64,000 nt of DNA, from the IMG/VR virus record IMGVR_UViG_3300022602_000027; one strand, written 5' to 3'. The notes under the pieces were generated by a model. That model worked only from the letters and a program-made list of their open reading frames with translations, was not told the DNA's origin and made no database searches. The DNA is from a virus (lineage: Duplodnaviria > Caudoviricetes). Numbering within the stretch: position 1 is the first letter of the stretch; every line of letters begins with the position of its first letter. The position numbers and the translations under genes are program-made. Below are positions 12,002 to 34,944 of this stretch, piece by piece.

Positions 12002-12430
12002 TTAGATTTGACTGAAGATATCATTTTCATTAAGAATCCTAAATTTAATACCTTGTTGTTTGCACCATAAGTTAGCAGCCGCCCATTTGGCTTGATTTTT
12101 AACAAATTGTGCTTGGTTGAATTTATTCTTACCTACACGTTCTAGTATAGTTTGACTAGCTGGTTTTATTTCTATCAGCTCTACGTGCATTTTATTATTT
12201 TTGTCCATGTACTGAATGAAAAAATCAGGAACATAAACAGTTTGACGTTCAGTTAGGGGATCTCTGTAGGGAATTTGTACAGCTTCACTAGCCCACTTAG
12301 CTACATTCTCGTTAGTATCACAGAAGTTCATAAAACTCCATTCCCAACTTGAACGATATGTTGGAGTTTTAGTTCCAACATATTTTTCAGGGTGTTTCAT
12401 TGTGAACTTGCCGCGAGCAAATTTAGCCAT
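12002..12430 (-). CDS. gp4: Head completion nuclease (gp4-like, TnsA/PD-(D/E)XK fold)
   Basis: PEKYVG...YRSSWE...WASE...IPY...YVPDF...IEIKP motif series. Confidence 0.88.
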   Translation of the reverse strand: MAKFARGKFTMKHPEKYVGTKTPTYRSSWEWSFMNFCDTNENVAKWASEAVQIPYRDPLTERQTVYVPDFFIQYMDKNNKMHVELIEIKPASQTILERVGKNKFNQAQFVKNQAKWAAANLWCKQQGIKFRILNENDIFSQI

Positions 12431-19937: not shown

Positions 19938-19957
19938 TATTTAGCTATCGATAAATA
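19938..19957. promoter_or_regulatory. Back-to-back divergent TAAATA late promoter boxes for gp13 and gp14
   Basis: TATTTA at 19938-19943 and TAAATA at 19952-19957. Confidence 0.65.
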
Positions 19958-19964
19958 TGTTACT

Positions 19965-21428
19965 ATGCCAAGATTAAGTCTATATAAACCGGAAAAAGGC
20001 AATGACTATAAGTTCATTGACCGCCAAGCTAGCGAAATGTTCACAGTAGGCGGTACAGACGTCTATTGGCACAAATATTTAGGTGCTAATACTAGTGCTG
20101 AAAATGCCACTGCGGACCAACCTAATTACCCAAGTGCAAAACTAACAAATATACAAGATTTGTTATTTTTAGAAAACCGCGATCGCACCTATGATACAGA
20201 GATTTATCGAGGACGTGGAATTTATAACGTTCAAAATATTGATTTTAACCTAAGTCAATTTGGTCTTTTTATTGACAATGACACGCTGTATATGAGTGTG
20301 CATATTAATGATATCATTAAAACATTAGGACGTAAACCAGTTACAGGAGATGTAATAGAGTTACCCCACTTACGAGATGATTTTGCTATTAATGATTTAA
20401 ACGTAGGATTACCGAGATATTATCAAGTAACAGACGTTGGTCGTGCTTCAGAAGGTTTTTCAGTTACTTGGTTCCCACACATCTACAGAATAAAATTAAA
20501 ACGTGTTGCTAACCAACAGCAATTTGCACAAATTTTTAGTGCGCCAGCAACTGACGTTAATGGCGATCCAGTAGTTGGAGCAAACACTACATTAGCTGAT
20601 TTGTTAAGCACTTACAATACTACATTAGGTATTACTAATCAAGTTGTAGCTCAGGCAGAAGCCGATGCTCCAATGAGCGGATATGAAACTAGACAATTTT
20701 ATACACTAGCAGTTGATCCTAATACGGGTAAACCAATTGTTAAAACAGCAGACGAATCAGATTTAGATGCTAGTCAAATAAGTTATCTTGCAAATGAAAA
20801 CGCCGGAGTACCAGTGCGTACTGGTTATACTGGATATTTAATTGGTGATGGCTATCCAGTTAATGGTTATGCATTTGGATTTGGAATTCAGTTTCCTGAA
20901 AATCCCGGGGTAGATGATTTCTTTTTACGTACAGACTTTTTGCCCAACAGATTGTTTCGATTTGATGAAAAGTCTAGTGCTTGGATTAAAGTAGAGGATG
21001 CTGTACGTATGGACATGACACAAACTGATTCACGTAGCACACTCAAAACTGGATTCATTAATAACAACAATTACACTTACAATGGACAAGTTGCTAGTGA
21101 TGTTGTAACATTAACATCTGGTTCTACTACTGTGTTTACTAGAATTTTATTTGCTACCGGAAGTGCAGTACCATATGTTGTTCTTAAACAAGGTATAACA
21201 ACAATGGCGTATGCATTAAGTGATTATCCAACTACATTGTATAGCACCTATACATACACAAGTCCGGCAAATACAACATCGGCTTGTTTAAAAATTACTT
21301 TACCTGTAATCAATGACGAACAACAAACCATACCAGTTGGCGGACAATGGACTGTAACACTATATAACACAAGAGAAGCAGAACGACAAAGCCTGTCAAC
21401 TGCTCTTAAACCTAAGGCGGACTTCTAA
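19965..21428 (+). CDS. gp14: Neck protein gp14-like with C-terminal extension
   Basis: DLLFLENRDR, LSQFGLFIDNDTL, GRKPVTGDVIELP; lies between gp13 and gp15. Confidence 0.65.
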   Translation: MPRLSLYKPEKGNDYKFIDRQASEMFTVGGTDVYWHKYLGANTSAENATADQPNYPSAKLTNIQDLLFLENRDRTYDTEIYRGRGIYNVQNIDFNLSQFGLFIDNDTLYMSVHINDIIKTLGRKPVTGDVIELPHLRDDFAINDLNVGLPRYYQVTDVGRASEGFSVTWFPHIYRIKLKRVANQQQFAQIFSAPATDVNGDPVVGANTTLADLLSTYNTTLGITNQVVAQAEADAPMSGYETRQFYTLAVDPNTGKPIVKTADESDLDASQISYLANENAGVPVRTGYTGYLIGDGYPVNGYAFGFGIQFPENPGVDDFFLRTDFLPNRLFRFDEKSSAWIKVEDAVRMDMTQTDSRSTLKTGFINNNNYTYNGQVASDVVTLTSGSTTVFTRILFATGSAVPYVVLKQGITTMAYALSDYPTTLYSTYTYTSPANTTSACLKITLPVINDEQQTIPVGGQWTVTLYNTREAERQSLSTALKPKADF

Positions 21429-22894
21429 TGCAATGGTTTTATGACGGACAAGTAAGACGATATCTTACACAAACAATTCGTGTTTTCAGTAACTTTGTAG
21501 TCAAGTACGGTGACGGTACATTGCATCCAATTCCTGTAATTTACGGTGATCAAGATCGTCAAGTTGCTAGTATATTAAATCAGAATTCAGAAAATTCTAT
21601 TGCAACTGTGCCTAAGATTGCTATCTATATAACTGGTTTAGAATTAGATCGTAATCGATTATCAGATCAAACTTATGTAGGTAAACTTAATTTTCGAGAA
21701 AGAGACGTTAATAGCGTTACTGGAAAATATACTACTAACCAAGGACGAAACTATACCGTAGAACGTCTAATGCCAACTCCATATAATTTAAAAATGAAGT
21801 GCGATATATGGGCATCAAGCACGGATCAAAAGTTACAAATACTTGAACAAATTCTAGTATTGTTTAATCCAAGTTTAGAACTACAAACTACAGACAACTA
21901 CATTGACTGGACTAGTTTAAGTGTATTAAATTTAGTTGATGTAACATGGAGTAGTCGTCAAGTTCCACAAGGAACGGACTCTGCAATTGACGTAGCATCA
22001 TTAACATTAGAAGCACCTGCATGGATCAGTCCGCCAGTTAAGGTTAAACATCTTGGAGTTATTACTAAAGTTATTACTAGTTTATACGGCTCAGAAGGCA
22101 CATATCCTAACGGGTACATTGACGGATTAGGCATTGACCCTGCACTACAGGGTAACAGCAATAGCACTAATTTTAGCGACTTGTTGGCTACAGAAGTAAC
22201 TACGATTACTGGTTATACTATTCAAGTATATAATGGGCAAGCTAGATTGTATGACAGTACTGATGGTTTTGTGCCATACGAACCTAGTTTAGATATTCCA
22301 GCATCTACAGGAACACCTGTAGATTGGATGAGTTTATTTGCACAATATCCAGGGCAATATGTTGCAGGGTCTAGTCAAATATACCTACAACAAACCACAG
22401 GAACTTATGTTATAGGAACTATTGCTGTTAACAGTCTAGATTCAACTATATTACAAGTTAATTACAATCCAGATACTTACCCTAGCAATACAGGCATTGA
22501 CAGTAACGGATTGTTATCAACTGATCCTGGTTATAATGCCGCAGGCAGTTATCGTGCCAACAGCCCAGGAACATTTGATGCTATTATAAATCCACAAACA
22601 TTTGTTCCTAATGCTCCTACAGCAGGAACTCGCTATCTTATCATAGAAGATATAGGAAATAGTATCAACGCAAATCCAGCAACAGCATGGGGCAGTTTAG
22701 TTGCAGTTACCAATGATATTATTGAATACACAGGTTCTGCATGGCAAGTTATTTTTAATGCCGTTCAAGAATCAGACACTATGATATGGCAGACGAATAT
22801 ATACACTGGAGTTCAATACTTATGGAACGGAGTTTCATGGGTTAAGAGCTTTGAGGGTGAATATAAGTCTGCACAATGGAAAATCATACTATAA
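21428..22894 (+). CDS. gp15: Tail terminator / sheath stabiliser gp15-like with C-terminal extension
   Basis: FYDGQVRRY, IPVIYG, MPTPYNL, QILEQILVLFNPSL. Confidence 0.8.
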   Translation: MQWFYDGQVRRYLTQTIRVFSNFVVKYGDGTLHPIPVIYGDQDRQVASILNQNSENSIATVPKIAIYITGLELDRNRLSDQTYVGKLNFRERDVNSVTGKYTTNQGRNYTVERLMPTPYNLKMKCDIWASSTDQKLQILEQILVLFNPSLELQTTDNYIDWTSLSVLNLVDVTWSSRQVPQGTDSAIDVASLTLEAPAWISPPVKVKHLGVITKVITSLYGSEGTYPNGYIDGLGIDPALQGNSNSTNFSDLLATEVTTITGYTIQVYNGQARLYDSTDGFVPYEPSLDIPASTGTPVDWMSLFAQYPGQYVAGSSQIYLQQTTGTYVIGTIAVNSLDSTILQVNYNPDTYPSNTGIDSNGLLSTDPGYNAAGSYRANSPGTFDAIINPQTFVPNAPTAGTRYLIIEDIGNSINANPATAWGSLVAVTNDIIEYTGSAWQVIFNAVQESDTMIWQTNIYTGVQYLWNGVSWVKSFEGEYKSAQWKIIL

Positions 22895-23325
22895 AAGAAT
22901 CAATAGTTTGTAGCGGAGCATTGTTTTACGCTAAATCTACACGACGATTCCTTTTACTGCAAAAAGCCCACGGTAAACACGAGGGCACTTGGGGGCTAGT
23001 GGGTGGTACTAACATTGTTGGAGAAACTCCATGGCAGGGGTTACAGCGTGAAATTACTGAAGAAATTGGTGTACACCCAAAAATAATTAAAACAATCCCC
23101 TTAGAAACATTTGTTTCAAACGATAGAGTTTTTAACTTTCACACATACTTGTGTGTAGTCGAAGACGAATTTGTGCCAACTTTAAGCGATGAGCACCAAG
23201 GGTGGGCGTGGGCTATTATAGATCGTGCACCTAAACCCCTGCATCAAGGATTGCGTAATAGTTTTTCAAGCAAAACTATTCGTACAAAATTACAAACAGT
23301 ATTTGATTTAGTGGAGCTAATCTAA
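22876..23325 (+). CDS. Nudix hydrolase
   Basis: Exact Nudix box G-TNIVG-E-TPWQGLQ-REITEEIGV (GX5EX7REUXEEXGU). Confidence 0.92.
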   Translation: MENHTIKESIVCSGALFYAKSTRRFLLLQKAHGKHEGTWGLVGGTNIVGETPWQGLQREITEEIGVHPKIIKTIPLETFVSNDRVFNFHTYLCVVEDEFVPTLSDEHQGWAWAIIDRAPKPLHQGLRNSFSSKTIRTKLQTVFDLVELI

Positions 23326-23945
23326 TGGATTCAAGAATTGATAACATATACGTTACCCCAATATATGTTGCTACTATTACAGAGCAAGAGGGATTCAATT
23401 TAATACAGCAAGAAGCTAAAAAAGCAATTGAAGCTTCTAAATTTTCAAGCAGAGAAGAATGGGGTCCAACTCATTATCTTTCTTCTACTACTTTTATTAA
23501 TGATGTTATTAAAGAACAAAACATGCAGATATTTTCTGCGGTAATGCATTCTCATTTAAAAGAGTATATGGATATTGTTGGGTTTGCCATGAGACCTTAT
23601 ATGGTAACTAGCTGGTTTAGTCTATTCCAACAACATCAATATGGGCAAATTCATACTCACGGAAACGCTGATGTTAGCGGTTGTTACTATGTAGAAACTT
23701 CAGGTGACGATGGAGATTTCTTTTTTGAAGACCCAAGACCGTCTAATGAAACTAGTTATGTGTTCAGCGGAAGATACATGTCTGGTCGTCGAGGATATAA
23801 ACCAAAGGTAGGACAAATGTTAATGTTTCCCGGTTACTTACCTCACGGTATTAAAACAAATACTAAAACTACAGATAGAGTTAGTTTAAGTTTTAATATT
23901 AAATTTATAGATCCACGATGTGAATTAAAGCAGAACAATGGTTAA
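23325..23945 (+). CDS. 2OG-Fe(II) oxygenase (HxH...H type)
   Basis: IHTHGNADVSGCYYV, FEDPR, MFPGYLPHGI, RVSLSFN. Confidence 0.85.
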   Translation: MDSRIDNIYVTPIYVATITEQEGFNLIQQEAKKAIEASKFSSREEWGPTHYLSSTTFINDVIKEQNMQIFSAVMHSHLKEYMDIVGFAMRPYMVTSWFSLFQQHQYGQIHTHGNADVSGCYYVETSGDDGDFFFEDPRPSNETSYVFSGRYMSGRRGYKPKVGQMLMFPGYLPHGIKTNTKTTDRVSLSFNIKFIDPRCELKQNNG

Positions 23946-24591
23946 AAAAATAGGAATTTTTGGAGATAGTTTTTCAGACCCAACGTGGAATGATAATAGT
24001 TACCAATCATGGCCTGAAATGTTAGCCGACCAATATCAAGTTACTAATTATTCTAAAAATGGATCTAGTCTTTGGTATTCTTATCAAAAATTAAAAAAAC
24101 ATATTTCAGAATTTGATGCTTGCGTTTTTGTTGCTACAATATGGGGAAGATTTTATCTAGAAGGATTAGATAAGCATTTAAATATTAATACAAATACATG
24201 GCCAACACAGCACGGTGTTAATTTAGGACAAACTTATTATGAATACTTTTTTTCGTTTGAGAGAGAACAAGTATTTCATAACTTCATGATTAACGACATA
24301 TTAAATTTAAAAAATGTTATTTTTATTCCAGCATTTCAAGAATGTGTAATTGATAACAAAGGTATTTCTCTTAATCATTATGCTAATGCTGAACTTCATC
24401 ACTATGGAGTATTAAATTATCAAGGTCCAGATGACAGAAAATGTCATCTTACTATTGAAAACAACAAGACAATTTATAAAAAAGTCTTAAATGCTATTGA
24501 ATCTAATTTAAATAGCATAGAGTTTTCAATGGACGAATTTATTCCGCCGTCTGAGCCGTTTAATTTTTATCTAAATCGAAACATAAAATGA
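23938..24591 (+). CDS. SGNH/GDSL hydrolase-like protein
   Basis: IFGDSFS block I, NYSKNGSS block II, late DDRKCHL His motif. Confidence 0.55.
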   Translation: MVKKIGIFGDSFSDPTWNDNSYQSWPEMLADQYQVTNYSKNGSSLWYSYQKLKKHISEFDACVFVATIWGRFYLEGLDKHLNINTNTWPTQHGVNLGQTYYEYFFSFEREQVFHNFMINDILNLKNVIFIPAFQECVIDNKGISLNHYANAELHHYGVLNYQGPDDRKCHLTIENNKTIYKKVLNAIESNLNSIEFSMDEFIPPSEPFNFYLNRNIK

Positions 24592-25199
24592 CTATAAAAA
24601 TTATAGAAAATTTAATACCATTAACTTGGCAACAAGATTTATTTGCATCTGCCAAAGAATGTTTCTATATCTATAAAGAAAATACATCTTATAAAGTTGA
24701 TGAGGCTACTTTTATTCAAGGAATGGATATTTTTATCGATGAAAATACCGTTGATACTTTACAGTTTGTTCATTATATAAACTGGGGAGCTCGTGATCAC
24801 AATCACATGTACCCTTTTATGAAACCATTAATTCATATGTTAGGGCAACAGCTAGGAAAAAAAATTAATAGAGTTCATAGAATGAAGATTAATCATACAT
24901 GTCCCCAACCAAATTTTACTGAAAATAATTATAATATTCCACATACAGACGATCCAGACCCTAAAAAATTTACAGCTATCTACTATATTAATGACAGTGA
25001 CGGTGATACATTTATTTTTAATGAAATGTATAATACAGAATGGCAAACAAAACCGATTGAAAAATTAACTATAGCAAGACGAGTTACTCCTAGAGCAGGA
25101 ACTGCTGTAGTATTTCCGGCAACACAACTACATGCTAGTTCAAATCCAATTAATACTAAAAGTAGATGGGTCCTAAACATTCTATTTGAGATTGAATAA
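24588..25199 (+). CDS. 2OG-Fe(II) oxygenase (HxD...H)
   Basis: PHTD, AIYYINDSDGDT, AVVFPATQLHAS, RWVLNI. Confidence 0.85.
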   Translation: MTIKIIENLIPLTWQQDLFASAKECFYIYKENTSYKVDEATFIQGMDIFIDENTVDTLQFVHYINWGARDHNHMYPFMKPLIHMLGQQLGKKINRVHRMKINHTCPQPNFTENNYNIPHTDDPDPKKFTAIYYINDSDGDTFIFNEMYNTEWQTKPIEKLTIARRVTPRAGTAVVFPATQLHASSNPINTKSRWVLNILFEIE

Positions 25200-25801
25200 T
25201 GAATATTGATCGATGGTTTCCTACTGTTATTAGTTGTTCTGATGATAATTTGACAGATAAGTTAGATATCTATCGTTCTTACTGCGAGGAAATAACTAAC
25301 GGTATTCCTCTTAGTAGACCATTTACTGGATCTCAACTAGTAAGTACGTTTAATCAACCAATGCCACAGTATGATCGTCCTATAGAAAAAGATTTAAGAT
25401 TTAACGAGTTATTTGATCTTATACTTGAAAAAGGATCAATGTTTGCAGAATTTTTAGGTTACAAATATAACTTAGAAATATCTCATGCTTGGGTTAATAA
25501 AATACAAGCCAACGATTACCACGAATTACATAACCATGCCCTAGGAGGTAATGCATTAATATCAGGAGTGTTCTATGTATCTGCGCCCTCAAGTGCATTT
25601 CTTAGATTTAGAGACAATATTGAAACATATAGTCCAGTTCCTCCTACAGCGCATACTCCTTACAATAACAAACATGCCACATATCAGTGCTTACCTGGAA
25701 GATTAATTCTTTTTAAATCTGATGTATTACATGGATACGATTCGCATCTTTCAGATGATGTAAAATATAGTATTGCTTTTGACTTATCGGTGAAATTATG
25801 A
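25199..25801 (+). CDS. 2OG-Fe(II) oxygenase (HxH...H type)
   Basis: HELHNH, ISGVFYV, PGRLILFKSDVLHG, KYSIAFD (Lys in place of the usual 2OG-binding Arg). Confidence 0.8.
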   Translation: MNIDRWFPTVISCSDDNLTDKLDIYRSYCEEITNGIPLSRPFTGSQLVSTFNQPMPQYDRPIEKDLRFNELFDLILEKGSMFAEFLGYKYNLEISHAWVNKIQANDYHELHNHALGGNALISGVFYVSAPSSAFLRFRDNIETYSPVPPTAHTPYNNKHATYQCLPGRLILFKSDVLHGYDSHLSDDVKYSIAFDLSVKL

Positions 25802-26424
25802 TTAACAAAGACTTCGCGTTTATTAAACCATTTGGGCCTGTTATATACAGTAATCTTCTTAATCCAGACGTAGTTAACGTATTGAATGAATGCAAAACGG
25901 TATCAGAATATATTGGTGATGATATTGGTTATATGCTTGCTGGAGCGATTAATTCTCAACTGAGATTAGTTAGAACCGCAGAACAAGAACAAATAATATA
26001 CGATCATATTTTTGAACATTTTGCTGCCTATATGGATAGAGATCCCGAATCACTTAAAAAAGAATATAAAATACCCAACAACGGTATCTGGTTAAATGTG
26101 CAACGAGCAGGCGAATTTAACCCGCCTCATCACCACGATGGACATTTTTCAGGGGTAATTTATCTAGAAGTGCCTCCTGAACTTGCAGAAGAAAATAAAA
26201 AGAAACCTGTAGGATTCCACTTACACGGCGAAATAAGTTTTTATTATGGCGACGATATTGGATGTCAAACGTATTTTCATATGATGCCAAGAGTTGCGCA
26301 GATGGTTATATTTCCAGCAAAGCTACAGCACGGAGTTCACCCTTTTTATAGTGATGTAAGACGAGTTTCAGTTGCATTTAACCTTTATAAACTTGCCGAA
26401 CCAATGCTGTTAGTTGATTCATAA
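25798..26424 (+). CDS. 2OG-Fe(II) oxygenase
   Basis: NPPHHHDGHFSGVIYL, MVIFPAKLQHGVHPF, RRVSVAFN. Confidence 0.85.
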   Translation: MINKDFAFIKPFGPVIYSNLLNPDVVNVLNECKTVSEYIGDDIGYMLAGAINSQLRLVRTAEQEQIIYDHIFEHFAAYMDRDPESLKKEYKIPNNGIWLNVQRAGEFNPPHHHDGHFSGVIYLEVPPELAEENKKKPVGFHLHGEISFYYGDDIGCQTYFHMMPRVAQMVIFPAKLQHGVHPFYSDVRRVSVAFNLYKLAEPMLLVDS

Positions 26425-26450
26425 CTATCTCCAACGGTAAAAAATACTAC

Positions 26451-26456
26451 TAAATA
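26451..26456 (+). promoter_or_regulatory. Late promoter box TAAATA inside the oxygenase cassette
   Basis: CTAAATA in the 57-bp gap before 26482, followed by an AAGGA SD. Confidence 0.55.
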
Positions 26457-26481
26457 CCCTACAATTAAGGAATGAATTACT

Positions 26482-27270
26482 ATGGATTCAAATTTACCAA
26501 TCGAACACTCACAAGAAACTCCAGTTGCGGTTAAACCAAAACGCCCTTTAGAAATTATCTATTTGGAAAATGTTGCCCGCTCAGACACATTTGCTAATGT
26601 ACTAGGGGATACTGATAAACCAGGTTGGGAATTTGGAAGAATGACTGACGAAACCGAAGATAAAGATACTGCTATTATGTTCTGGCAACAAAATATGCAA
26701 CGTAGTAGTTGGTGTTCTGAAGTTTTATGGTATGAATTATTAGCTAAATTAGAAGAAACTCATCCAGCTACAAAAAATTATCAATTTAAAGTAAAAGATG
26801 TTACCTGCGGCGGAAAAACTTTTGGCCAAGATGGCGGTATTCATACTGATTACGACTTTCAATTTACAGAAGAGGGTGACGGTTGGATGACTGTTTGTTT
26901 CTTTCCTAATAAAGAGTGGAATCCAGAATGGGGCGGAGAGTTTCAATTTTTTAATGACGCAGGGGATGTAATTGCAAGTTATTATCCAAAACCTAATACT
27001 GCGCTTGTATTTGATTCTAATATTCCGCATAGAGGTTTAGCTCCAACTCGTAATTGTAACAGATTGCGCAAATGCTTAACTTTTAAAACTTTTGTACATA
27101 AACAATGGTTTTTAGAATCCAATCCAGATGTAAAAATGATTGACGGTAGTGTTGTTCCCGGGCTAGTTAGTACACCAACAAGAACAGACATGGGTAATAC
27201 TAATTCTCCTGAACCAGCGGCAATTTTTACAGATCCAACGGCACCAGCTAAGAAAAATATTGTAGGTTAA
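26482..27270 (+). CDS. Prolyl-4-hydroxylase-like 2OG-Fe(II) oxygenase
   Basis: IHTD, WNPEWGGEFQFF, PKPNTALVFDSNIPHRG, RKCLTFK. Confidence 0.85.
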   Translation: MDSNLPIEHSQETPVAVKPKRPLEIIYLENVARSDTFANVLGDTDKPGWEFGRMTDETEDKDTAIMFWQQNMQRSSWCSEVLWYELLAKLEETHPATKNYQFKVKDVTCGGKTFGQDGGIHTDYDFQFTEEGDGWMTVCFFPNKEWNPEWGGEFQFFNDAGDVIASYYPKPNTALVFDSNIPHRGLAPTRNCNRLRKCLTFKTFVHKQWFLESNPDVKMIDGSVVPGLVSTPTRTDMGNTNSPEPAAIFTDPTAPAKKNIVG

Positions 27271-27272
27271 TT

Positions 27273-27482
27273 ATGGATCCAGGAATAAGAAGAACACATT
27301 TTCCAGATAGATTACTATTTGTTCCTATTAAGATTAGAGACGAACGTCTTGCAATTTGTAACAAATGTCCTAATAATAAAAATTTAGAATGCGTAGTAAA
27401 TGGAAAACCTGTATACTCTATGGTCACTAAAAAGAATTTAATGTGTCCCTTAGGATTTTGGTCTACACATTATGGCAGTTAA
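27273..27482 (+). CDS. Small Cys-rich protein (69 aa)
   Basis: ERLAICNKC...C...CPLGFW, four Cys; fills the gap exactly with coupled junctions. Confidence 0.65.
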   Translation: MDPGIRRTHFPDRLLFVPIKIRDERLAICNKCPNNKNLECVVNGKPVYSMVTKKNLMCPLGFWSTHYGS

Positions 27483-28200
27483 AATTGGTTGGTGTCCATG
27501 GCCTGAAAAAACACATTTAACTAATGACGGCCCTACTACTTATTACGGTCATGCCGAAATATTAGCTATACCTCCTCAGAAATTAGATACTTGGGATAAC
27601 AGTCATTCAGGGTTTACTAAATGCCCTGCTTTTAGTACATACGTTTCTAACACCTACATGATTTTTTCTAACATTGATGTTGAATTAACTTGGGATGCTA
27701 CTAACAAAGTATTAAACAGTAATTTACCCCAACATGCATATAATACTCATATTAATTTGCATTATCAAGATTTTGTACCAGATGTAGATCCTCCAATTGT
27801 TGCTTTAATGTCTAGTATGTTGTTTGTGGCCGACCAGCCAGTTGTAATGGAAATGACACCTCCTTACAATCATATCGACCCAGCATGGCGTATGATGCCC
27901 GGGTCTTTTAATATCTATAATTGGTTTAGACCAATTATACCTACTTTTGAAATGTTACATACAAAAGTATCTATTAAGCGTGGACAACCATTAATGTATG
28001 TTCGTTTTAAAACTGAAAATTTTAAAGATAATATTGTATTAGAACGTATAGAACGTACAGATGAACTAGAACATTTAGTTAATAGTTGTTTGTCAGTTAA
28101 AACATATCAACCATCCTTAAGTTGGCGTATTGCTAACTCTTTAAATCCCATTAGACCTAGGAAACTTTTAAAATCATGCCCACTAAAGAAATGGCTTTAG
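27472..28200 (+). CDS. Hypothetical protein (242 aa), aromatic/Pro-rich, predicted beta-rich
   Basis: KCPAF, MPGSFNIYNWFRP, IKRGQPLMYVRF; overlaps both neighbours. Confidence 0.65.
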   Translation: MAVKIGWCPWPEKTHLTNDGPTTYYGHAEILAIPPQKLDTWDNSHSGFTKCPAFSTYVSNTYMIFSNIDVELTWDATNKVLNSNLPQHAYNTHINLHYQDFVPDVDPPIVALMSSMLFVADQPVVMEMTPPYNHIDPAWRMMPGSFNIYNWFRPIIPTFEMLHTKVSIKRGQPLMYVRFKTENFKDNIVLERIERTDELEHLVNSCLSVKTYQPSLSWRIANSLNPIRPRKLLKSCPLKKWL

Positions 28201-29417
28201 ATCTATTTAGACCGAAGACTTTAGTAGTTGTTGGTGCAGGAACTGCCGGGATACAAGGGGTATGTCATTATCTTGCGTATCTAGCCAGTCATGGTTGGAT
28301 AATAACTCTTATTCATTCTCCTAAAATTAATATATTAGGCATAGGAGAAAGTACCAATCCTCCATTTGTAGAAGCATTAGAGGATGGAGCAAATTTTAAT
28401 ATACTTGATGATACAGAAAAACTAGATGCTACATTAAAATTTGGAACCCATTATGTAAATTGGAGGGACAATCCCTTTACGGTTCCTGTGCTTACTGGAC
28501 ATGCCGCTTTGCACATTAATACTTTTAAATTAAAAGAGTTTGCACTTCCACGTTTAAAATCAATATGGGGAGACAAATTTCAAATTATCGAAGGAACAGT
28601 CTCTGTATTAGAAAATTACGAAGAATCAGTACGTGTTGTAGTCGACGATAAAGATTATTATTTTGATTATGCTGTTGATAATCGAGGATTTCCAGATTCG
28701 TATGATGACTATAATATAATTGAAGACAATCCAGTTAATCATGCACTCATCCACAACACCCCTGAACGACTTGATTTAAATGCTACACTACACCAAGCAA
28801 CACCAGACGGATGGATGTTTGGTGTTCCGTTAACATCGAGAACTAGTTATGGGTATTTGTTTAACGACAAATTAACCACAGTAGAACAAGCAAAAATTAA
28901 TTTTAGTAAAGAAATTAATGTACCTGTTGAAGAATTAAACAATATAGAATATAAATTTAAATCATATTATGCAAACAAAGTCTTAGATAAAAGAATTATT
29001 AAGAATGGAAATAGGGCTGTATTTTTTGAGCCTATGTTTGCCAACAGTTTATGGTTGTATAAAAATATTGATAAGGCATTTATTAGTTACATGAAAGGAT
29101 TTTTTACAGAAGAAAAAACAAATGAAATATTCAATAATATATCTCAAGATGTAGAAGAGTTAATTTGTTATTTTTATCATGGCGGCAGCATTTATAACAC
29201 AGAATTCTGGCAACTTGTTAAGCCCTATGCTAGTAAAAAATTAGAAAATAGTAGATCTTTTAATGTTATGAAAAGTCTAATGCGTCGACAATATAAGTTT
29301 AAACAATTTGATCCAACAGTAAACGAATACAGTTGGGTGTTTGGTGAAAAACACATGTTTAGTATAGATGAAAAATTAGGTTATAATTATTTTTCTGCCC
29401 CAGATGAAAACAATTAA
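28176..29417 (+). CDS. Divergent tryptophan-halogenase-family flavoprotein (413 aa)
   Basis: GAGTAG FAD motif, LGIGEST, ATLKFG..YVNW, GWMFGVPL (variant WxWxIP), FFEPM. Confidence 0.75.
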   Translation: MPTKEMALDLFRPKTLVVVGAGTAGIQGVCHYLAYLASHGWIITLIHSPKINILGIGESTNPPFVEALEDGANFNILDDTEKLDATLKFGTHYVNWRDNPFTVPVLTGHAALHINTFKLKEFALPRLKSIWGDKFQIIEGTVSVLENYEESVRVVVDDKDYYFDYAVDNRGFPDSYDDYNIIEDNPVNHALIHNTPERLDLNATLHQATPDGWMFGVPLTSRTSYGYLFNDKLTTVEQAKINFSKEINVPVEELNNIEYKFKSYYANKVLDKRIIKNGNRAVFFEPMFANSLWLYKNIDKAFISYMKGFFTEEKTNEIFNNISQDVEELICYFYHGGSIYNTEFWQLVKPYASKKLENSRSFNVMKSLMRRQYKFKQFDPTVNEYSWVFGEKHMFSIDEKLGYNYFSAPDENN

Positions 29418-29440
29418 ATATCACAAATATAGGAAATAGT

Positions 29441-31027
29441 ATGCCAAGTATAGACAAAATTGTAGTTTTAGGTGGAGGTTCAGCTGGGTGGATGACAGCC
29501 GCAACACTTAAACATCATCTTCCCAACAAAGAAGTATATGTAATTGAAAGTCCCAACATACCAACTGTAGGAGTAGGTGAAAGCACTATTGGTCAAATCA
29601 ATGCTTGGCTACATGATTTAGATATTAAAGACGAAGATTGGATGGTTCATTGTGATGCTAGTTATAAACTAAGCATCAAATTTACTGACTTTTACAAAGA
29701 AAATTCAGGAGGATTTCATTATCCATTTGGACTTCCACATGTCGATGGCACTATATTTGGAATTAATGACTGGTACTTTAAGAAAATGAAGTATCCAGAA
29801 ACTCCTAACAGCGATTACGCTTATACTTATTATCCAGCTACTATGCTTTCTGAGGCAAATAAAATTATCACAAATGAAGATAATAAAATGCCGTCATGGA
29901 GATTTAGCAATGATACTGCTTATCATTTTGATGCGGCAAAATTTGGTGCATGGTTAAGAGACGGGTATTGCAAGCCTCGAGGAGTTATACATATTCCTAG
30001 CGAAGTAATTAGTGTACAAACTAATGATAAAGGTGTTGAGAGTCTTACATTAACTGACGGTAGTTTAGTTACTGCTGATTTGTTTATTGATTGCACAGGA
30101 TTTAAGGCAATGCTAATTGATAAAGCATTAGGAGTTCCTTTTATACCCTTTGATCATATGTTGCCTAACAACAGTGCATGGGCTACAAGAATTCCTTATC
30201 AAGACAAAGCAAAAGAATTACAACCATATACTAATTGTACTGCTATTGAAAACGGTTGGGTTTGGAACATTCCTCTTTGGAGTCGAACAGGAACTGGGTA
30301 TGTTTACAGTGATAAGTTTGTAAGTGATGCAGATGCCTTAGAACAATTTAAAAATTATTTACGCAGACGTGATCCTGTTGTTATTCCAGAAGAAATAATT
30401 GATACTTTAGAATTTAAAAATATCAAAATGCGCATTGGTATACATAAAGAAATTTATTCTAAAAATGTATGTGCTATTGGTTTAGCGGCTGGATTTATTG
30501 AACCTTTAGAAAGCAATGGATTATTTACTGTACATGAATTTGTTACTAAATTAGCAAAAACTTTGCGAAGAGAAAGTATTAGTCAGTGGGATAAAGACAC
30601 GTTTAATACTAGTTGCCGTAGAGATTTTAAAACATTTGCACAATTTGTTTCATTGCACTACGCTCTAAGCCAAAGAGATCAAACAGCATATTGGCAAGCA
30701 ATAAATGAAAAACAATTTAGTCTTGACATGGTTAATGACAATATAAACAAATCCGGGTTTGAAGATTTAATGTTTAGTAGAATGAATGGCAATACATACA
30801 CATTAGATTTAGGCGGAATACCTGCTATTGCTGCCGGCATGGGATATTTTCCATTAGACGAAAGTAGTGTTAAACGCAGTATGTATGTTAATAATCATAC
30901 AATGTTACGTGAAGTTATAGAAAATACACTCGAACGCTGGAAAACACAAGAAGCAGAATGGCAATCTATTGTCAACGAAGCTCCTACCCTACTTGAATTT
31001 TTATCTGAAATGTATGCTTCTAAGTAA
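29441..31027 (+). CDS. prnA: Flavin-dependent halogenase, tryptophan halogenase (PrnA) family
   Basis: GGGSAGWMTA, VGVGEST, ASYKLSIKF (catalytic Lys), AYHFDA, FIDCTGF, GWVWNIPL, GFIEPLESNG; TAAATA at 29415-29420. Confidence 0.9.
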   Translation: MPSIDKIVVLGGGSAGWMTAATLKHHLPNKEVYVIESPNIPTVGVGESTIGQINAWLHDLDIKDEDWMVHCDASYKLSIKFTDFYKENSGGFHYPFGLPHVDGTIFGINDWYFKKMKYPETPNSDYAYTYYPATMLSEANKIITNEDNKMPSWRFSNDTAYHFDAAKFGAWLRDGYCKPRGVIHIPSEVISVQTNDKGVESLTLTDGSLVTADLFIDCTGFKAMLIDKALGVPFIPFDHMLPNNSAWATRIPYQDKAKELQPYTNCTAIENGWVWNIPLWSRTGTGYVYSDKFVSDADALEQFKNYLRRRDPVVIPEEIIDTLEFKNIKMRIGIHKEIYSKNVCAIGLAAGFIEPLESNGLFTVHEFVTKLAKTLRRESISQWDKDTFNTSCRRDFKTFAQFVSLHYALSQRDQTAYWQAINEKQFSLDMVNDNINKSGFEDLMFSRMNGNTYTLDLGGIPAIAAGMGYFPLDESSVKRSMYVNNHTMLREVIENTLERWKTQEAEWQSIVNEAPTLLEFLSEMYASK

Positions 31028-31586
31028 TTTTTTATATGAATTTCATTGGGATGAATTTAATATTCATCGAGATGCTCTTATAGAGCATTGTTTAAAAAAT
31101 GAAAAACCTAATACTATAGAATCAAATATTGCTGTAGATGCAAAAACTAATCTTTGGGAAAGCACATTTCATTTTTTAGAAGATAATAATCCGGCAGTTG
31201 TTGCACTAAAACTATGGATGGTTTGTGCTGTTGAAGATTTTATCTGTCGATCTAATCATAAAAAATATAAACTTGCAATAACAGAGTGTTGGGCACATCT
31301 TACAAGGACTAACGGATGGCATGCTCCTCACGCTCATCCAGGTAGTACATGGTCTGGAATATTTTATGTTGATGAAGGTGATAAAAATTGCGGGGGTACT
31401 ACTTGTTTTATTTCGCCATTTAATGTTGAACGTAAACCTGGATTAGATTTCTTTCAAAATGAATGCCGGGTAGTCACCAAACCCGGCATGATGATTATAT
31501 TTCCTAGCTCTCTTATTCACTACGTGCAACCTTACATAGGCACAGCACCAAGAATTACGATAGCATTTAATTCTATCTGTATTTAA
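31014..31586 (+). CDS. 2OG-Fe(II) oxygenase (HxH...H type)
   Basis: Start re-called at ATG 31014; HAPHAHPGSTWSGIFYV, PGMMIIFPSSLIHYV, RITIAFN. Confidence 0.85.
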   Translation: MLLSNFLYEFHWDEFNIHRDALIEHCLKNEKPNTIESNIAVDAKTNLWESTFHFLEDNNPAVVALKLWMVCAVEDFICRSNHKKYKLAITECWAHLTRTNGWHAPHAHPGSTWSGIFYVDEGDKNCGGTTCFISPFNVERKPGLDFFQNECRVVTKPGMMIIFPSSLIHYVQPYIGTAPRITIAFNSICI

Positions 31587-32057
31587 TTATTGATTAACAA
31601 TATTTGGAATAGTGCTCGGAGCGGCTTGATTATATCCTGATCCAGGATTAGTAGGTACAACAACATCAGGCTGTCCTGCACCGGGTGGTGTAGTTAACAT
31701 AGCAGGTTTAGGAATAGCTGCCTTAACACTAGCAATATGTTGAGCCCATTCGCCATTAGGGCTAATGGTACCAGTTGACATTAACTCTCTATAAAGCATA
31801 TCCATTTGATCGTTCACTCCAGCATACGCTCGCATACGTTGCATATAAAACGGCTCTACGGTATTACCAAATTGATCTCGATTAGCCGCATGTGGATCTT
31901 CAAAAGTACCGTCTGGCAATAATAAGAAATAAGTTTCTGTGTTATCAGGACAGTCAGTCCAATACAAACCAGTGTGCGTTTCAAATTGTTCAGCTTCGCT
32001 GTTAACAATTTGCACTACACGGTTTGTAGCTGTTTCTATAAGTGCTCTTTTTGTCAT
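31587..32057 (-). CDS. Probable tail fibre assembly chaperone
   Basis: Follows three fibre genes; RMRAYAGVNDQMDMLY...W..HI..VKA.IPKP pattern; TAAATA-N5-ATG. Confidence 0.5.
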   Translation of the reverse strand: MTKRALIETATNRVVQIVNSEAEQFETHTGLYWTDCPDNTETYFLLLPDGTFEDPHAANRDQFGNTVEPFYMQRMRAYAGVNDQMDMLYRELMSTGTISPNGEWAQHIASVKAAIPKPAMLTTPPGAGQPDVVVPTNPGSGYNQAAPSTIPNIVNQ

Positions 32058-32077: not shown

Positions 32078-33055
32078 TTATCTATATTCGTAGACTATAC
32101 ATATTCCATTGCCGCCGGGGAATCCGCCTTGTCCATTGTGGCTACCAGAAACAGTACTACCACCGCCACCATATGGTATCGGAGCACCGGTATTTTTTTG
32201 TGCAGAATGATAAGTAGGAGCACCATTACCAAAATATCCAGCTCCGCCAGTGGCATCATACCCTGAACTACTGTTACTCTGATCATTATTACTGTGACCA
32301 CCGTTAGTTCCACCTTTGGAATTTAGGGTGCCGCCATATCCATATCCGCCGTGACCGCTAGCATGTCCGTAATTCGCATCTGCGCCATATCCGCCACTAG
32401 CTGACAAATAACCGCCAAAACTTGTAGTGCCCCCTGCACCAATATTTGCATAGTACGAAGCACCACTAGTACCAGTACCTATAGTAACACTAACTGATGT
32501 AATGCCTGACGCCGCTAATATTGTTTCAGAATATCCGCCAGCGCCGCCACCAATATTATAGCTAGTTCCACCGCCACCTGCACCAACACAAACAACGTGA
32601 ATTTGATTAACATCAGTACCACTTTTAGTATAAGTTCCTGAACTAGTAAATGTATAGATATTTTTTAAACGACCTTTTAGTGTATTATCGTGATAAGTCT
32701 TTGCGGCATTTTGTGTAACAGCATAGCTGTTTGTAGCATTATTAGTATAACCACTTTGATTCATGTTAGTATCATTAGATACTTGACTGATTGTTCCGCT
32801 ACCTACACTTAAACTACTAGTACCAACAGTATTAGGTGTGCTAGTTCCGTGGTTTGTAACACTAATAGTTCCGCCAGTAATACTAACACTACTAGCATCT
32901 TGATTGCCTAGACTGTTAGCAACTAATACAGGCACATTACTTGAATTGCCAATCCACATTTTTTTATCTGGGATATTAATTGCTACTTCTCCAGGTTGTA
33001 AACTTGAAGGAGTATTTCCTGGTGTTGTTGAATTTTTAAACTGAAATAAAGGCAT
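32078..33055 (-). CDS. Gly-rich tail fibre/receptor-binding protein, paralog 3
   Basis: N-terminal P.SLQPGEVAIN..DKKMWIGN anchor; C-terminal VVCVGAGGGG...GGAGGYSE...GICIVYEY Gly-rich domain. Confidence 0.7.
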   Translation of the reverse strand: MPLFQFKNSTTPGNTPSSLQPGEVAINIPDKKMWIGNSSNVPVLVANSLGNQDASSVSITGGTISVTNHGTSTPNTVGTSSLSVGSGTISQVSNDTNMNQSGYTNNATNSYAVTQNAAKTYHDNTLKGRLKNIYTFTSSGTYTKSGTDVNQIHVVCVGAGGGGTSYNIGGGAGGYSETILAASGITSVSVTIGTGTSGASYYANIGAGGTTSFGGYLSASGGYGADANYGHASGHGGYGYGGTLNSKGGTNGGHSNNDQSNSSSGYDATGGAGYFGNGAPTYHSAQKNTGAPIPYGGGGSTVSGSHNGQGGFPGGNGICIVYEYR

Positions 33056-33056
33056 A

Positions 33057-33998
33057 TTATTTAAACTCGTAAACTATGCAAATTCCACCCTTACCGTTTT
33101 GACCGTAAGTAGCTTGATTGCCGGCACTACCGCCTGTGCCAAAACCGGCATTTGGAGTATAAGTCCATGTATTATGACAGCTAGGATTTCCGCCACCAAA
33201 GAATCCTGACCCGCCAACTCCGCCGCCACCGGAGCCATTGTTTTGACTGGTCAAATGTCCTGAGCCCCCGCCACCTGGCACGTTAACTTGTCCGCCGTAT
33301 CCGTACCCACCGTGTCCACCACTATGAGTATTATTATTGTTAGCTCCATATCCTCCACTAGCTGATAAGTATGAACCAAAACTAGTTGTGCCACCTTGCC
33401 CATAGTTTCCATAGTAGCCACCGCCACCGCCACCACCGCCTACAGTAATAGTAACTGGCGTTGATATATTTGATATAAGGAAAAATCCTTCTGCATAGCC
33501 TCCAGCGCCGCCACTTTCGTGATATCCAGCGGCACCGCCGCCACCTGCAACGCAAATAACTTTAACACGATTAACTGCTGAACTACTTGGATTGTAACTA
33601 CTATTTCCAGTATAAGAATAAATGTTTAATAATGTATTTGTACCATAAGTATCTACATAAGTTTTAACAGCATTTTGGGTTGGTAAAGTATTTGCATTTG
33701 TTCCTAATGTTGATGAGCTGTTATCAACACCTGTTAATGCTGTACTTGAGCCAACAGTTAAACTAGTAGTGTTTAAGTTAGTTGCAGTTAATGTAGTATT
33801 ATTAATTGCACCACCAGAAATATTAACGTTGCTACTAGTTTGATTACCTAAAGTACCAACAACAATTACAGGATTTCCACTTGCATTACCTACGTGCATG
33901 TGCGGAGTTTGTGTTGAATGGGCTATCTCACCTTGTAATAGCGTTCCAGTTGTAGGTACAGATGTTGAAGTTGAATATTTTGTTGAAATTATTGGCAT
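33057..33998 (-). CDS. Gly-rich tail fibre/receptor-binding protein, paralog 2
   Basis: Same architecture: LLQGEIA, PTQNAVKTYVD, VICVAGGGG, GGAGGYAE, GICIVYEF. Confidence 0.7.
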   Translation of the reverse strand: MPIISTKYSTSTSVPTTGTLLQGEIAHSTQTPHMHVGNASGNPVIVVGTLGNQTSSNVNISGGAINNTTLTATNLNTTSLTVGSSTALTGVDNSSSTLGTNANTLPTQNAVKTYVDTYGTNTLLNIYSYTGNSSYNPSSSAVNRVKVICVAGGGGAAGYHESGGAGGYAEGFFLISNISTPVTITVGGGGGGGGYYGNYGQGGTTSFGSYLSASGGYGANNNNTHSGGHGGYGYGGQVNVPGGGGSGHLTSQNNGSGGGGVGGSGFFGGGNPSCHNTWTYTPNAGFGTGGSAGNQATYGQNGKGGICIVYEFK

Positions 33999-33999
33999 T

Positions 34000-34944
34000 T
34001 TATTTGTACTCGTAAACTATGCATACACCACCTTGTCCAGTAACACCTGAACCGTGTGTACTGGCTCCGCCTGCACCTAATGCCGCATTGGCATAATTCC
34101 ACGGATCGCTATGTCCGTAGTGGCCGCTTTCAATACCGCCTCCAAAAAAGCTAGCTCCGCCATGTCCTGGATTGTGATTTGATGTTGAATATTCATTTCG
34201 ATGTCCGCTTCCACCACCACCGTAGCTGTTGATATTTCCGCCGTAGCCTAAACCACCTTGTCCTCCAGAATGAGTTTGATTGTTGTTAGCACCGCTTCCG
34301 CCGCTTGCTGAACAATATCCGCCAAAGCTGGTTGAGCCACCAGAGTTATAATTTCCATAGTAGCCACCGCCACCGCCACCACTGCTTGATACAGTAACAC
34401 TAACAGTACTGATGCCGCCGGCTGAAATTAGCAATTCTGCATAGCCGCCACCGCCACCACTTTCACCATAAGTAGCTGCAGCCCCACCACCTGCACCTAC
34501 GCACACAACTTTAATATAAGCAACATCGCTACCGCTCTTAGTGTAAGTTCCACTACTAGTGAATACGTACATGTTTTTAAGAGCACCTTTTTTACTGTTA
34601 ACATAAGTTGCCACTGCTAACTGTGTTGGAGTAGATGTTTGACTAGTTCCTAAAGCAGTATTAGTATCAATTGCTGTAATTGCAGGACTATTACCATTAA
34701 TTTGTAAGTTTGTTGCTGTAATTGCGGCTTGTGTAGTATTACCAACTGGAGTATTATTAATTGATCCGCCAGTAATACTAACACTAGATGCCGCTTGACC
34801 AGCCAATGGAGTAGTAAGTAATACTGCTGTAGCGCCATTACCTACCCACATTTTATTATCAGTAATATTATAACCCATTTCACCCGCGGCTAACGTTGGG
34901 GTAACGCCGGTTGATGTACTGGTTTTAATTTTGATAATTGGCAT
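34000..34944 (-). CDS. Gly-rich tail fibre/receptor-binding protein, paralog 1
   Basis: LAAGEMGYNITDNKMWVGNG, PTQLAVATYVN, VVCVGAGGG, GGGGGYAE, GVCIVYEY. Confidence 0.7.
   Translation of the reverse strand: MPIIKIKTSTSTGVTPTLAAGEMGYNITDNKMWVGNGATAVLLTTPLAGQAASSVSITGGSINNTPVGNTTQAAITATNLQINGNSPAITAIDTNTALGTSQTSTPTQLAVATYVNSKKGALKNMYVFTSSGTYTKSGSDVAYIKVVCVGAGGGAAATYGESGGGGGYAELLISAGGISTVSVTVSSSGGGGGGYYGNYNSGGSTSFGGYCSASGGSGANNNQTHSGGQGGLGYGGNINSYGGGGSGHRNEYSTSNHNPGHGGASFFGGGIESGHYGHSDPWNYANAALGAGGASTHGSGVTGQGGVCIVYEYK

Follow-up and report, generated by a model that had tools for sequence, protein, structure and literature searches.

Phage gene clusters that combine dioxygenases with halogenases are already known. 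The array of phage Syn9, with ten dioxygenases, two Trp halogenases, and a dUTPase-fold Cys protein, was called unprecedented, and synthesis of an organohalogen metabolite was proposed (Iyer, Abhiman, de Souza and Aravind 2010, NAR, PMC2938197). For the cluster found in S-SSM6a-type jumbo cyanophages, metabolite or capsule decoration during pseudolysogeny was proposed (Iyer et al. 2021, Viruses, PMC7824862). VirX1, the flavin-dependent halogenase of cyanophage Syn10, forms trimers, has a large and open active site, shows a broad scope in vitro, and has no known natural substrate (PMC8407142). Many cyanophage 2-oxoglutarate (2OG) oxygenases have been linked to nitrogen status or DNA repair (Sullivan et al. 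2010), and the hypervariable region between g15 and g18 of cyanomyoviruses is an accessory hot spot in the structural module (Millard et al. 2009, reviewed in PMC2984593). Here, we describe a cassette of twelve genes at positions 22876–31586 (plus strand) of a 64,000-nucleotide stretch of viral DNA (Duplodnaviria; Caudoviricetes; IMG/VR record IMGVR_UViG_3300022602_000027), which we will call the window. The cassette converges on a fibre operon, and there is a recurrent genomic link between halogenase-bearing islands of this type and fibre-tip genes.

The initial annotation described the cassette as twelve coupled open reading frames (ORFs) running on from gp15, and the ORF coordinates bear this out. 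Neighbouring genes overlap by 1–25 nt or are separated by a 2-nt gap, save for two larger gaps of 57 nt (26425–26481) and 23 nt (29418–29440). The cassette encodes a Nudix hydrolase, six 2OG-type oxygenases (OxyA to OxyF), a weakly matching SGNH-like protein, a 69-residue protein with four Cys residues (Cys69), a DUF6065-type protein of 242 residues (U242), and two flavin halogenases (Hal413 and Hal528). Pfam matches and alignments support the oxygenases, the halogenases, and the Cys protein as first named, while the SGNH assignment is weak and the Nudix hydrolase is a partner of gp15. The ratio of nonsynonymous to synonymous substitution rates (dN/dS) lies between 0.04 and 0.30 for all twelve genes, including those of Hal413, Cys69, U242, and the SGNH-like protein; the genes are therefore under purifying selection and functional. 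Related phage loci and records are referred to below by L and G numbers. Two close relatives, L096 and L098, share the gene order of the window cassette save for one addition in L096, which is 93–97% identical to the window across most of the cassette. The addition is an extra halogenase of 516 residues (L096:6712–8262), which separates the short halogenase from the full one. It comes with a TAAATA box of its own and is a recent single-gene gain or loss inside the island.

On the minus strand, the cassette is met by three tandem Gly_rich_2 fibre-tip paralogues of 325, 313, and 314 residues (32078..34944; PF21722 and PF18454), one of which has an Mtd_N-type N-terminus. The convergence on three fibre genes that had been described earlier is present, except that a gene for a 156-residue protein (31587..32057, minus strand; phrog_1787), the last gene of the fibre operon, abuts the cassette and sits between it and the fibres. 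In the relatives this gene is always found between the fibre triplet and the island, and its role is possibly in fibre assembly. The converging operons end on adjacent bases (31586/31587); neither a spacer nor a terminator-like hairpin separates them, and late transcription from either side should yield overlapping antisense RNAs.

The surroundings of gp15 were compared in 80 IMG/VR relatives with a gp15 61–83% identical to that of the window. In L096, identity to the window is 85–97% for the cassette, the 156-residue gene, and the fibres but 67–70% for the flanking p186 and p112, which indicates that the cassette, the 156-residue gene, and the fibres form one mosaic block. All six IMG/VR loci with window-type fibre relatives (42–75% identical) have the triplet, the 156-residue gene, and a convergent island with the gene order oxygenase, Cys69, DUF6065, halogenases, halogenase, oxygenases. 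Gly_rich_2 triplets abut the island in the window, L096, L098, L102–L107, and G001, and single Gly_rich_2 genes are located at the island edge in L009, L031, and L071. In G001, which has the same fibres, halogenase and oxygenase genes continue on the fibre strand directly downstream, and in G004 the whole island is on the strand of the fibre operon, directly downstream of the fibre genes. Outside this group, cultured cyanophages show the pairing independently. Syn9 gp38 and gp39, two S-WAM1 genes, and P-TIM40_44 encode Gly_rich_2 proteins; these genes share the strand of the halogenases and lie upstream of them, with one small gene in between. Sf-CH11 has the order P4H (prolyl-4-hydroxylase), 2OG, halogenase, 2OG, 2OG, followed by a Gly_rich_2 gene (Sf-CH11_97).

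A tblastn search with Syn9 gp38 returned 20 of 50,697 phage records, those with a full-length gp38-like gene, and all 20 carry a VirX1-like halogenase at most ~3.6 kb away. The window fibre Fib1 gave no tblastn match in the phage collection, for which low-complexity masking is a possible cause, and with Sf-CH11_97 only the shared N-terminal anchor was matched. Relatives that lack such fibres also lack full-length halogenases, as seen in G008 (96%-complete, 356 kb) and in the partial G006, G007, and G009. The recurrent link between halogenase-bearing islands and fibre-tip genes is real. Because PF13759 genes are scattered and DUF6065 is also found beside DNA ligase, the robust pairing is that of full-length halogenases with fibre tips, not of every oxygenase. 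The idea that all six oxygenases are directed at the fibres was rejected, since PF13759 genes are scattered in the relatives.

Among 30 halogenase-linked Gly_rich_2 proteins (three from the window and 27 others, distant phages included), three His, two Tyr, two Asn, and Glu positions as well as an invariant SxF are conserved, and these positions could be a metal site or modification sites. Both the fibre tips and the giant proteins of the window had been named as candidate substrates. The tips remain candidates by their linkage and their conserved His, Tyr, and Asn, although they have few Trp; nothing ties the giant proteins to the cassette. In the loci closest to the window by gp15 (80–83%), three tandem fibre genes of the same size (L091:10010–12912 and L092:4480–7390) adjoin a halogenase-rich island. 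These fibres have C1q-like tips (GRFTAPVxGxYxF...GYLIG) that are Trp- and His-rich instead of glycine-rich.

T4-type late promoters carry a TATAAATA-like box ~10 nt upstream of late starts that is read by a gp55-type sigma factor. The exact T4 octamer TATAAATA is absent from the window (0 copies versus 11.7 expected). The TAAATA hexamer is present in 50 copies versus 120 expected over positions 1–64000, with 17 of the 50 within the 2.4% of intergenic sequence and 13 no more than 45 nt upstream of starts, including those of most structural genes, among them the terminase, tube, sheath, gp13, gp14-like, and giant-protein genes. ATAAATA is present in 8 copies versus 35 expected. Both motifs are strongly depleted in coding sequence and are found before structural genes, where TAAATA is enriched, and sigma-70-like sites show no excess (62 versus 65 expected). 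A late-promoter-like ATAAATA box (19951..19957, plus strand) is located 8 nt before the gp14-like start and probably marks where the late operon of the plus strand, which runs into the cassette, begins. The two late-promoter-like TAAATA boxes that the initial annotation had noted inside the cassette are real, and each is in one of its only two gaps. The first (26451..26456, plus strand) is in the 57-nt gap, 26 nt before OxyE, and heads the conserved island core; the second (29415..29420, plus strand) is in the region of the 23-nt gap, 21 nt before Hal528. Both are kept in L096 (the second one twice), L098, L102, and L103, with flanks that diverge. Based on the run-on from a late-type structural operon, the conserved and enriched boxes, and the absence of a sigma-70-like excess, late expression is likely, as first suggested, and the cassette is probably transcribed both with the structural operon and from its two internal TAAATA promoters. 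An expression paper on P-HM2 does not cover these genes.

The co-inheritance of the island with receptor-binding genes would be explained as well by enzymes that act on the receptor side, altering a host surface molecule or an outer-membrane-receptor ligand that the fibre tips recognise. Such an action could keep progeny off debris or exclude competitors, with the enzyme set and the fibre type travelling together. In bacteria, genes homologous to these halogenases and dioxygenases are found alongside TonB-dependent receptors (PMC2938197), and it has been suggested that jumbo-phage clusters decorate capsular polysaccharide (PMC7824862). On the other hand, the cassette proteins look cytoplasmic, with no signal peptides or membrane proteins apparent on reading the sequences, and exclusion functions are usually early whereas the boxes here are late-type. 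Receptor-side action is improbable.

Hal528 (29441..31027, plus strand; PF04820, 3e-105) is a full-length protein that aligns end to end with VirX1 (6QGM), its closest solved relative, with an E-value of 1e-112. The motifs GGGSAGW, GVGEST, SYKLSIKF (the catalytic Lys region), GWVWNIPL, and FIEPLES are all aligned with those of VirX1, and we take the second Glu of EPLES (Glu346 in PrnA) to be the catalytic residue. With all family motifs in place, Hal528 is a predicted flavin-dependent halogenase of the Trp type. The shorter Hal413 (28176..29417, plus strand; Trp_halogenase, 2e-24; dN/dS 0.09) is a divergent flavin halogenase homologue that retains GxGxxG, GxGES, and the Lys. It reads GWMFGVPL for WxWxIP and FFEPMFA for EPLES; ~100 internal residues are missing, as is the C-terminal domain. 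Homology places Hal413 in the family, but it is doubtful that the protein is a competent halogenase. Relatives of the Hal413 type, with 393–408 residues, recur.

The six oxygenases, all encoded on the plus strand, belong to two Pfam families, with matches above the cut-off, and are only 17–24% identical to the first. OxyB (24588..25199; PF13640, 6e-7) and OxyE (26482..27270; PF13640, 7e-9), the latter with a C-terminal tail, are P4H-type 2OG oxygenases in which the HxD/E...H facial triad and the basic 2OG residue are intact (HTD...H...R), and the motif residues of OxyE are invariant in an alignment of relatives. The other four are PF13759 oxygenase-like proteins: OxyA (23325..23945; HTH...H...RxS; dN/dS 0.04), OxyC (25199..25801; HNH...H...KxS), OxyD (25798..26424; HHH...H...RxS), and OxyF (31014..31586; HAH...H...RxT). 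OxyF most likely starts at the ATG at 31014, which gives 190 residues as in the relatives, and not at the TTG at 30969. In these four proteins HxH replaces HxD/E, and the distal His and the R/K-x-S/T are retained. The uncharacterised solved PF13759 members 2RG4 and 3BVC likewise read HIH; HxH is a trait of the family and not of the window, and the metal site and chemistry of PF13759, which is very abundant in aquatic phages, may differ from those of a standard hydroxylase. No JmjC or Cupin_8 match was obtained among the cassette proteins with Pfam, and a counterpart of the JmjC/MINA-type Syn9 gp49, which other clusters of the kind do not require, was not detected. The nearest deposited relatives of the halogenase and the oxygenases are found in cyanophages, at <50% identity.

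Modification of the fibre tips by the island enzymes is the best single reading of the locus, one that we favour without regarding it as probable. The island is inserted into a hypervariable slot between the conserved gp15–Nudix pair and the convergent distal-fibre operon, and its core is inherited jointly with the triplet of glycine-rich, receptor-binding fibre-tip genes. The enzymes would act late in infection, in the cytoplasm, while the fibre tips fold, the halogenases with host-supplied reduced flavin and halide and the oxygenases with Fe, 2OG, and O2. Exposed side chains of the fibre tips would be covalently modified, with the conserved His and Tyr and with Asn or Trp in loops as candidates, and the outcome would be a tuning of receptor binding or stability. 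This reading is based on the linkage of halogenases and fibre tips in three architectures (the window clade, Syn9/S-WAM1/P-TIM40, and Sf-CH11), the presence of a halogenase in all 20 gp38-like records, and the lack of full-length halogenases in the relatives without such fibres. The mosaic block in L096, the islands on the fibre strand in G001 and G004, the conserved late-type boxes, and the fact that no scaffold-building enzyme was seen in the window point the same way, as do the large open active site of VirX1, which has no known natural substrate, and the conserved His, Tyr, and Asn of the 30 Gly_rich_2 proteins.

A number of observations weigh against modification of the fibre tips. No modified virion residue has ever been reported, and in our literature searches no publication turned up that describes hydroxylation or halogenation of phage fibres or connects these enzymes with fibre proteins. 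Flavin halogenases of the Hal528 class normally act on free small molecules, as VirX1 also does in vitro; the cassette enzymes have no protein-docking domains; and adjacent genes co-inherit for physical reasons alone. The 20 gp38-like records represent ~10 independent lineages and not twenty events. The similar islands of G002 and G003 abut three C1q-like fibres, not glycine-rich ones, and on this ground a specific tie of the cassette to the Gly_rich_2 domain was rejected. The window fibres have only 1–2 Trp each, and collagen-like (GXY)n stretches, sought in the fibres and giant proteins as a possible P4H substrate, are only chance runs inside Gly blocks. In S-B64 a lone halogenase is found among replication genes, and in a halogenase-free, 96%-complete genome without such fibres 11 PF13759 matches are scattered. 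In two other phage contigs, the DUF6065 gene comes after that of DNA ligase. Finally, islands with carbamoyltransferase, methyltransferases, subtilase, and GroES/GroEL fit an accessory slot or a small-molecule pathway.

In a small-molecule pathway, the enzymes would carry out the successive tailoring of an amino-acid-, peptide- or sugar-derived metabolite inside the infected cell, and the product could be a halogenated secondary metabolite or a group that decorates a surface polysaccharide. The literature favours such a pathway for the same gene set in the Syn9 and S-SSM6a clusters (PMC2938197, PMC7824862), which also counts against fibre modification. Many distant oxygenases (17–24% identity) in an array resemble multi-step pathways, e.g., that of cephamycin; the islands of the relatives include carbamoyltransferase and methyltransferases; VirX1 halogenates many small molecules in vitro; and PF13759 and DUF6065 are found in many non-fibre contexts. 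However, no nonribosomal peptide synthetase, polyketide synthase, or flavin reductase family was found in the 40 window ORFs scanned, the giant ORFs having been left out, in agreement with the initial annotation. No ATP-grasp enzyme, precursor peptide, or exporter was seen in the window scans either, and no transporter or scaffold gene was seen in the islands of the close relatives, of which the annotation is partial. Late expression within a structural operon would also leave a metabolite little time to benefit the host, and the tight pairing of full-length halogenases with fibre tips would be unexplained. A small-molecule product is rather unlikely on this balance.

The slot that follows gp15 and the Nudix gene contains from 0 to >15 genes in either orientation, and in the many relatives with an empty slot the convergent structural operon starts immediately after the Nudix gene. 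A dereplicated set of 173 island proteins includes ~74 2OG-oxygenase-like proteins, 18 halogenases, and ~16 DUF6065/U242-like proteins, and other cargo comprises GroES/GroEL, carbamoyltransferase, methyltransferases, subtilase, radical-SAM enzymes, and fibre genes. In phage Phosso, NAD-salvage genes occupy the same slot. Since the slot is hypervariable and carries unrelated cargo, the location of the cassette inside the virion gene region, which had been offered as support for a virion-directed function, is weak evidence by itself. The slot may even be a recombination-tolerant dump between converging late operons, in which case the cassette genes would have no common function and the fibre neighbourhood would be incidental. 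The range of unrelated cargo (NAD salvage, chaperonins, subtilase, an OMP-like protein) and the scattering of PF13759 genes elsewhere are as expected for such a dump, and hypervariable regions are known in the cyanomyovirus structural module (PMC2984593). Against it, the combination of halogenase, dioxygenase, and DUF6065 recurs in unrelated positions and phage lineages, and the halogenase stands with Gly_rich_2 in 20/20 gp38-like records. There is also a conserved island core, made up of a P4H-type oxygenase, Cys69, DUF6065, two VirX1-like halogenases (one short, one full), and a PF13759 oxygenase, and the order OxyE, Cys69, DUF6065, halogenases is kept down to 35–47% protein identity. We therefore give a functionless assembly a low probability.

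Two other gene sets were observed in the slot and its surroundings. In L061:2747–4743, L068:2396–4363, L004–L007, and L014, either GroES and GroEL genes or a GroES-like gene alone are located directly after the Nudix gene, at the island head. In L017:11867–15972, and also in L015 and L018–L025 (gp15 74–76% identical), other genes replace the fibre triplet on the strand of the fibre operon. These encode a 133-residue protein with a long terminal Cys/Asn repeat (NCNCNC...), a radical-SAM enzyme of 488–542 residues, a protein of 306–331 residues with no assigned family, and a short halogenase homologue of 400 residues, and the set looks like one for peptide or protein maturation.

U242 (27472..28200, plus strand), which had been left unnamed, belongs by alignment and modelling to DUF6065 as a divergent member with a dUTPase-like fold, and it corresponds to Syn9 gp43, itself a DUF6065 protein. 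Compared directly, U242 and Syn9 gp43 give no significant match; the link runs through a DUF6065 alignment from the relatives, which matches U242 with an hhalign probability of 93% and Syn9 gp43 with 99.9%. The Atlas score of U242 is 0.97, with an Atlas TM of 0.80 to DUF6065 clusters. An AlphaFold2 model built with 28 sequences has a mean pLDDT (predicted local distance difference test) of 83, compared with 37 for a three-sequence attempt, and its best solved Foldseek matches are all dUTPases. Cys51, the only invariant Cys of U242, is invariant in the 28 sequences, and a dUTPase-type acidic motif is absent from the protein. Atlas clusters include fusions of DUF6065 to a PF13640 oxygenase in viral proteins (382 residues) and to Cupin_8/JmjC in Pseudomonadota proteins (546 residues), which indicate a working partnership of the dUTPase-fold domain with oxygenases.

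The gene of Cys69 (27273..27482, plus strand; dN/dS 0.17–0.30) always adjoins the DUF6065 gene in the relatives. The protein has four invariant Cys (CxxC...C...C) and a CPxGFWS motif; Syn9 gp44 was considered as its relative and rejected on comparison. A complex prediction for OxyE, Cys69, and U242 gave a score of 0.21 (mark 0.32), which is evidence for neither side. The SGNH/GDSL-like protein (23938..24591, plus strand; dN/dS 0.06) has a Pfam match to PF13472 that is below the cut-off (E 0.009, 39 residues). Block I (GDSFSD) is present, GxND and DxxH are not clearly readable, and the protein belongs to a virus-only family near DUF6071, with DUF6071/Lipase_GDSL viral clusters as its Atlas neighbours.

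The Nudix hydrolase (22876..23325, plus strand; PF00293, 2e-15) has a canonical Nudix box of the form GX5EX7REUXEEXGU, GTNIVGETPWQGLQREITEEIGV. Its gene is located directly after gp15 in 77 of the 80 relatives, at 63–93% identity, and the pair is also found in the PA5oct-like phage Cassandra. It had been counted as a member of the cassette, but it is a conserved partner of gp15 that is present even where the island is absent. If the locus had a role in nucleotide or DNA modification, nucleotides or the phage DNA would be the substrates of the Nudix hydrolase, the dUTPase-fold protein, the oxygenases, and the halogenases. The dUTPase-like fold of U242, the position of DUF6065 after DNA ligase in the two other contigs, and the Nudix gene upstream are consistent with such a role. 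Nevertheless, U242 has its single invariant Cys and no acidic motif, the Nudix gene keeps to gp15 without the island, no oxygenase matches the TET/JBP or AlkB families in Pfam, and late timing is odd for the modification of precursors. We regard nucleotide chemistry as very improbable.

The ranking thus places fibre-tip modification first and a small-molecule pathway second, with receptor-side action, a functionless pile-up, and nucleotide chemistry behind them. The genomes of aquatic phages are very rich in 2OG oxygenase genes, and VirX1 already serves as a biocatalyst, yet we know of no natural substrate for VirX1 or for these oxygenases. Here and in cultured cyanophages, full-length halogenases are almost always found beside glycine-rich fibre-tip genes, which provides a testable guess at the substrate of the viral halogenases. 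We tentatively propose, as a possibility, that fibre tips (Gly_rich_2, perhaps C1q-like) are halogenated and hydroxylated before assembly and are the natural substrates of VirX1-type halogenases and of part of the aquatic-phage 2OG oxygenases. If true, no halogenated virion protein would have preceded these tips, phages would have a chemical means of tuning their host range, and host recognition by phages would have a chemical layer that sequence-based host prediction misses. If the fibres are unmodified, the small-molecule reading in the literature gains weight.

The large terminase and gp15 of the phage that carries the cassette are closest to those of the jumbo phages Phosso, PA5oct-like phages, Atu_ph07, and SCTP-2 (for gp15, Phosso, Atu_ph07, and PA5oct-like phages are the best relatives), and the window DNA recurs in freshwater lake metagenomes from 16 studies. 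From this kinship and recurrence, the carrier is judged to be an uncultured freshwater jumbo T4-like phage near PA5oct/Phosso and not a classical cyanomyovirus. A megablast search of the cassette against the 50,697 phage records gave zero nucleotide matches. Upstream of the cassette are the gp15-like tail-sheath stabiliser (21428..22894, plus strand; PF16724, 1e-24), which has a long C-terminal extension, and a virion structural protein at the gp14 position (19965..21428, plus strand; phrog_11591, 5e-87). Further upstream, the minus strand carries the genes of the terminase, the tube, and a 1162-residue sheath. A TnsA-like endonuclease gene (12002–12430, minus strand; PF08722, 9e-22), located in the tail genes between terminase and tube, may encode a mobile nuclease.

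The setting of the cassette can be compared with two known systems. The g15–g18 region of cyanomyoviruses is also a hot spot of accessory-gene insertion that begins right after gp15. In contrast to that region, gp16–gp18 are not downstream of the window slot, and the terminase, tube, and sheath genes precede it on the opposite strand; a convergent fibre operon closes the slot; and its cargo is made up of oxygenases and halogenases, not carbon-metabolism genes. The Gly_rich_2 proteins resemble the gp38 adhesins of T-even phages (PMC3157838), which are small glycine-rich fibre-tip proteins in which variable loops separate the Gly blocks and whose genes stand last in the fibre operon, although this is a resemblance only. 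Enzymatic modification of gp38 is not known, and T-even phages do not have such an enzyme island.

The enzymes themselves have closer counterparts. Hal528 shares with VirX1 an end-to-end alignment and all motifs, while it is <50% identical to any deposited phage halogenase and its activity is a prediction. The S-SSM6a-type cluster has an amino-acid halogenase and several 2OG and cupin hydroxylases, and carbamoyltransferase/methyltransferase genes are shared with the islands of the relatives; the window cassette has no carbamoyltransferase, methylase, or HAD (haloacid dehalogenase-type) phosphatase. The Syn9/Syn10 cluster (gp38–gp54) is the most similar. It has tandem distantly related dioxygenases, two Trp-halogenase-type enzymes with the Rossmann fold and the Lys, a dUTPase-fold protein with one conserved Cys, and Gly_rich_2 genes beside the halogenases. 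For this cluster the authors proposed the synthesis of a secondary metabolite and drew no link to the fibres. The window differs in its carrier, a freshwater jumbo phage, and in that the island converges on the fibres while that of Syn9 follows them. In addition, no JmjC/MINA-type member was detected, one of its halogenases is short and degenerate, and a four-Cys mini-protein and an SGNH-like protein are added. Judged from its genes, the window cassette is a Syn9-type cluster in a new phage lineage.

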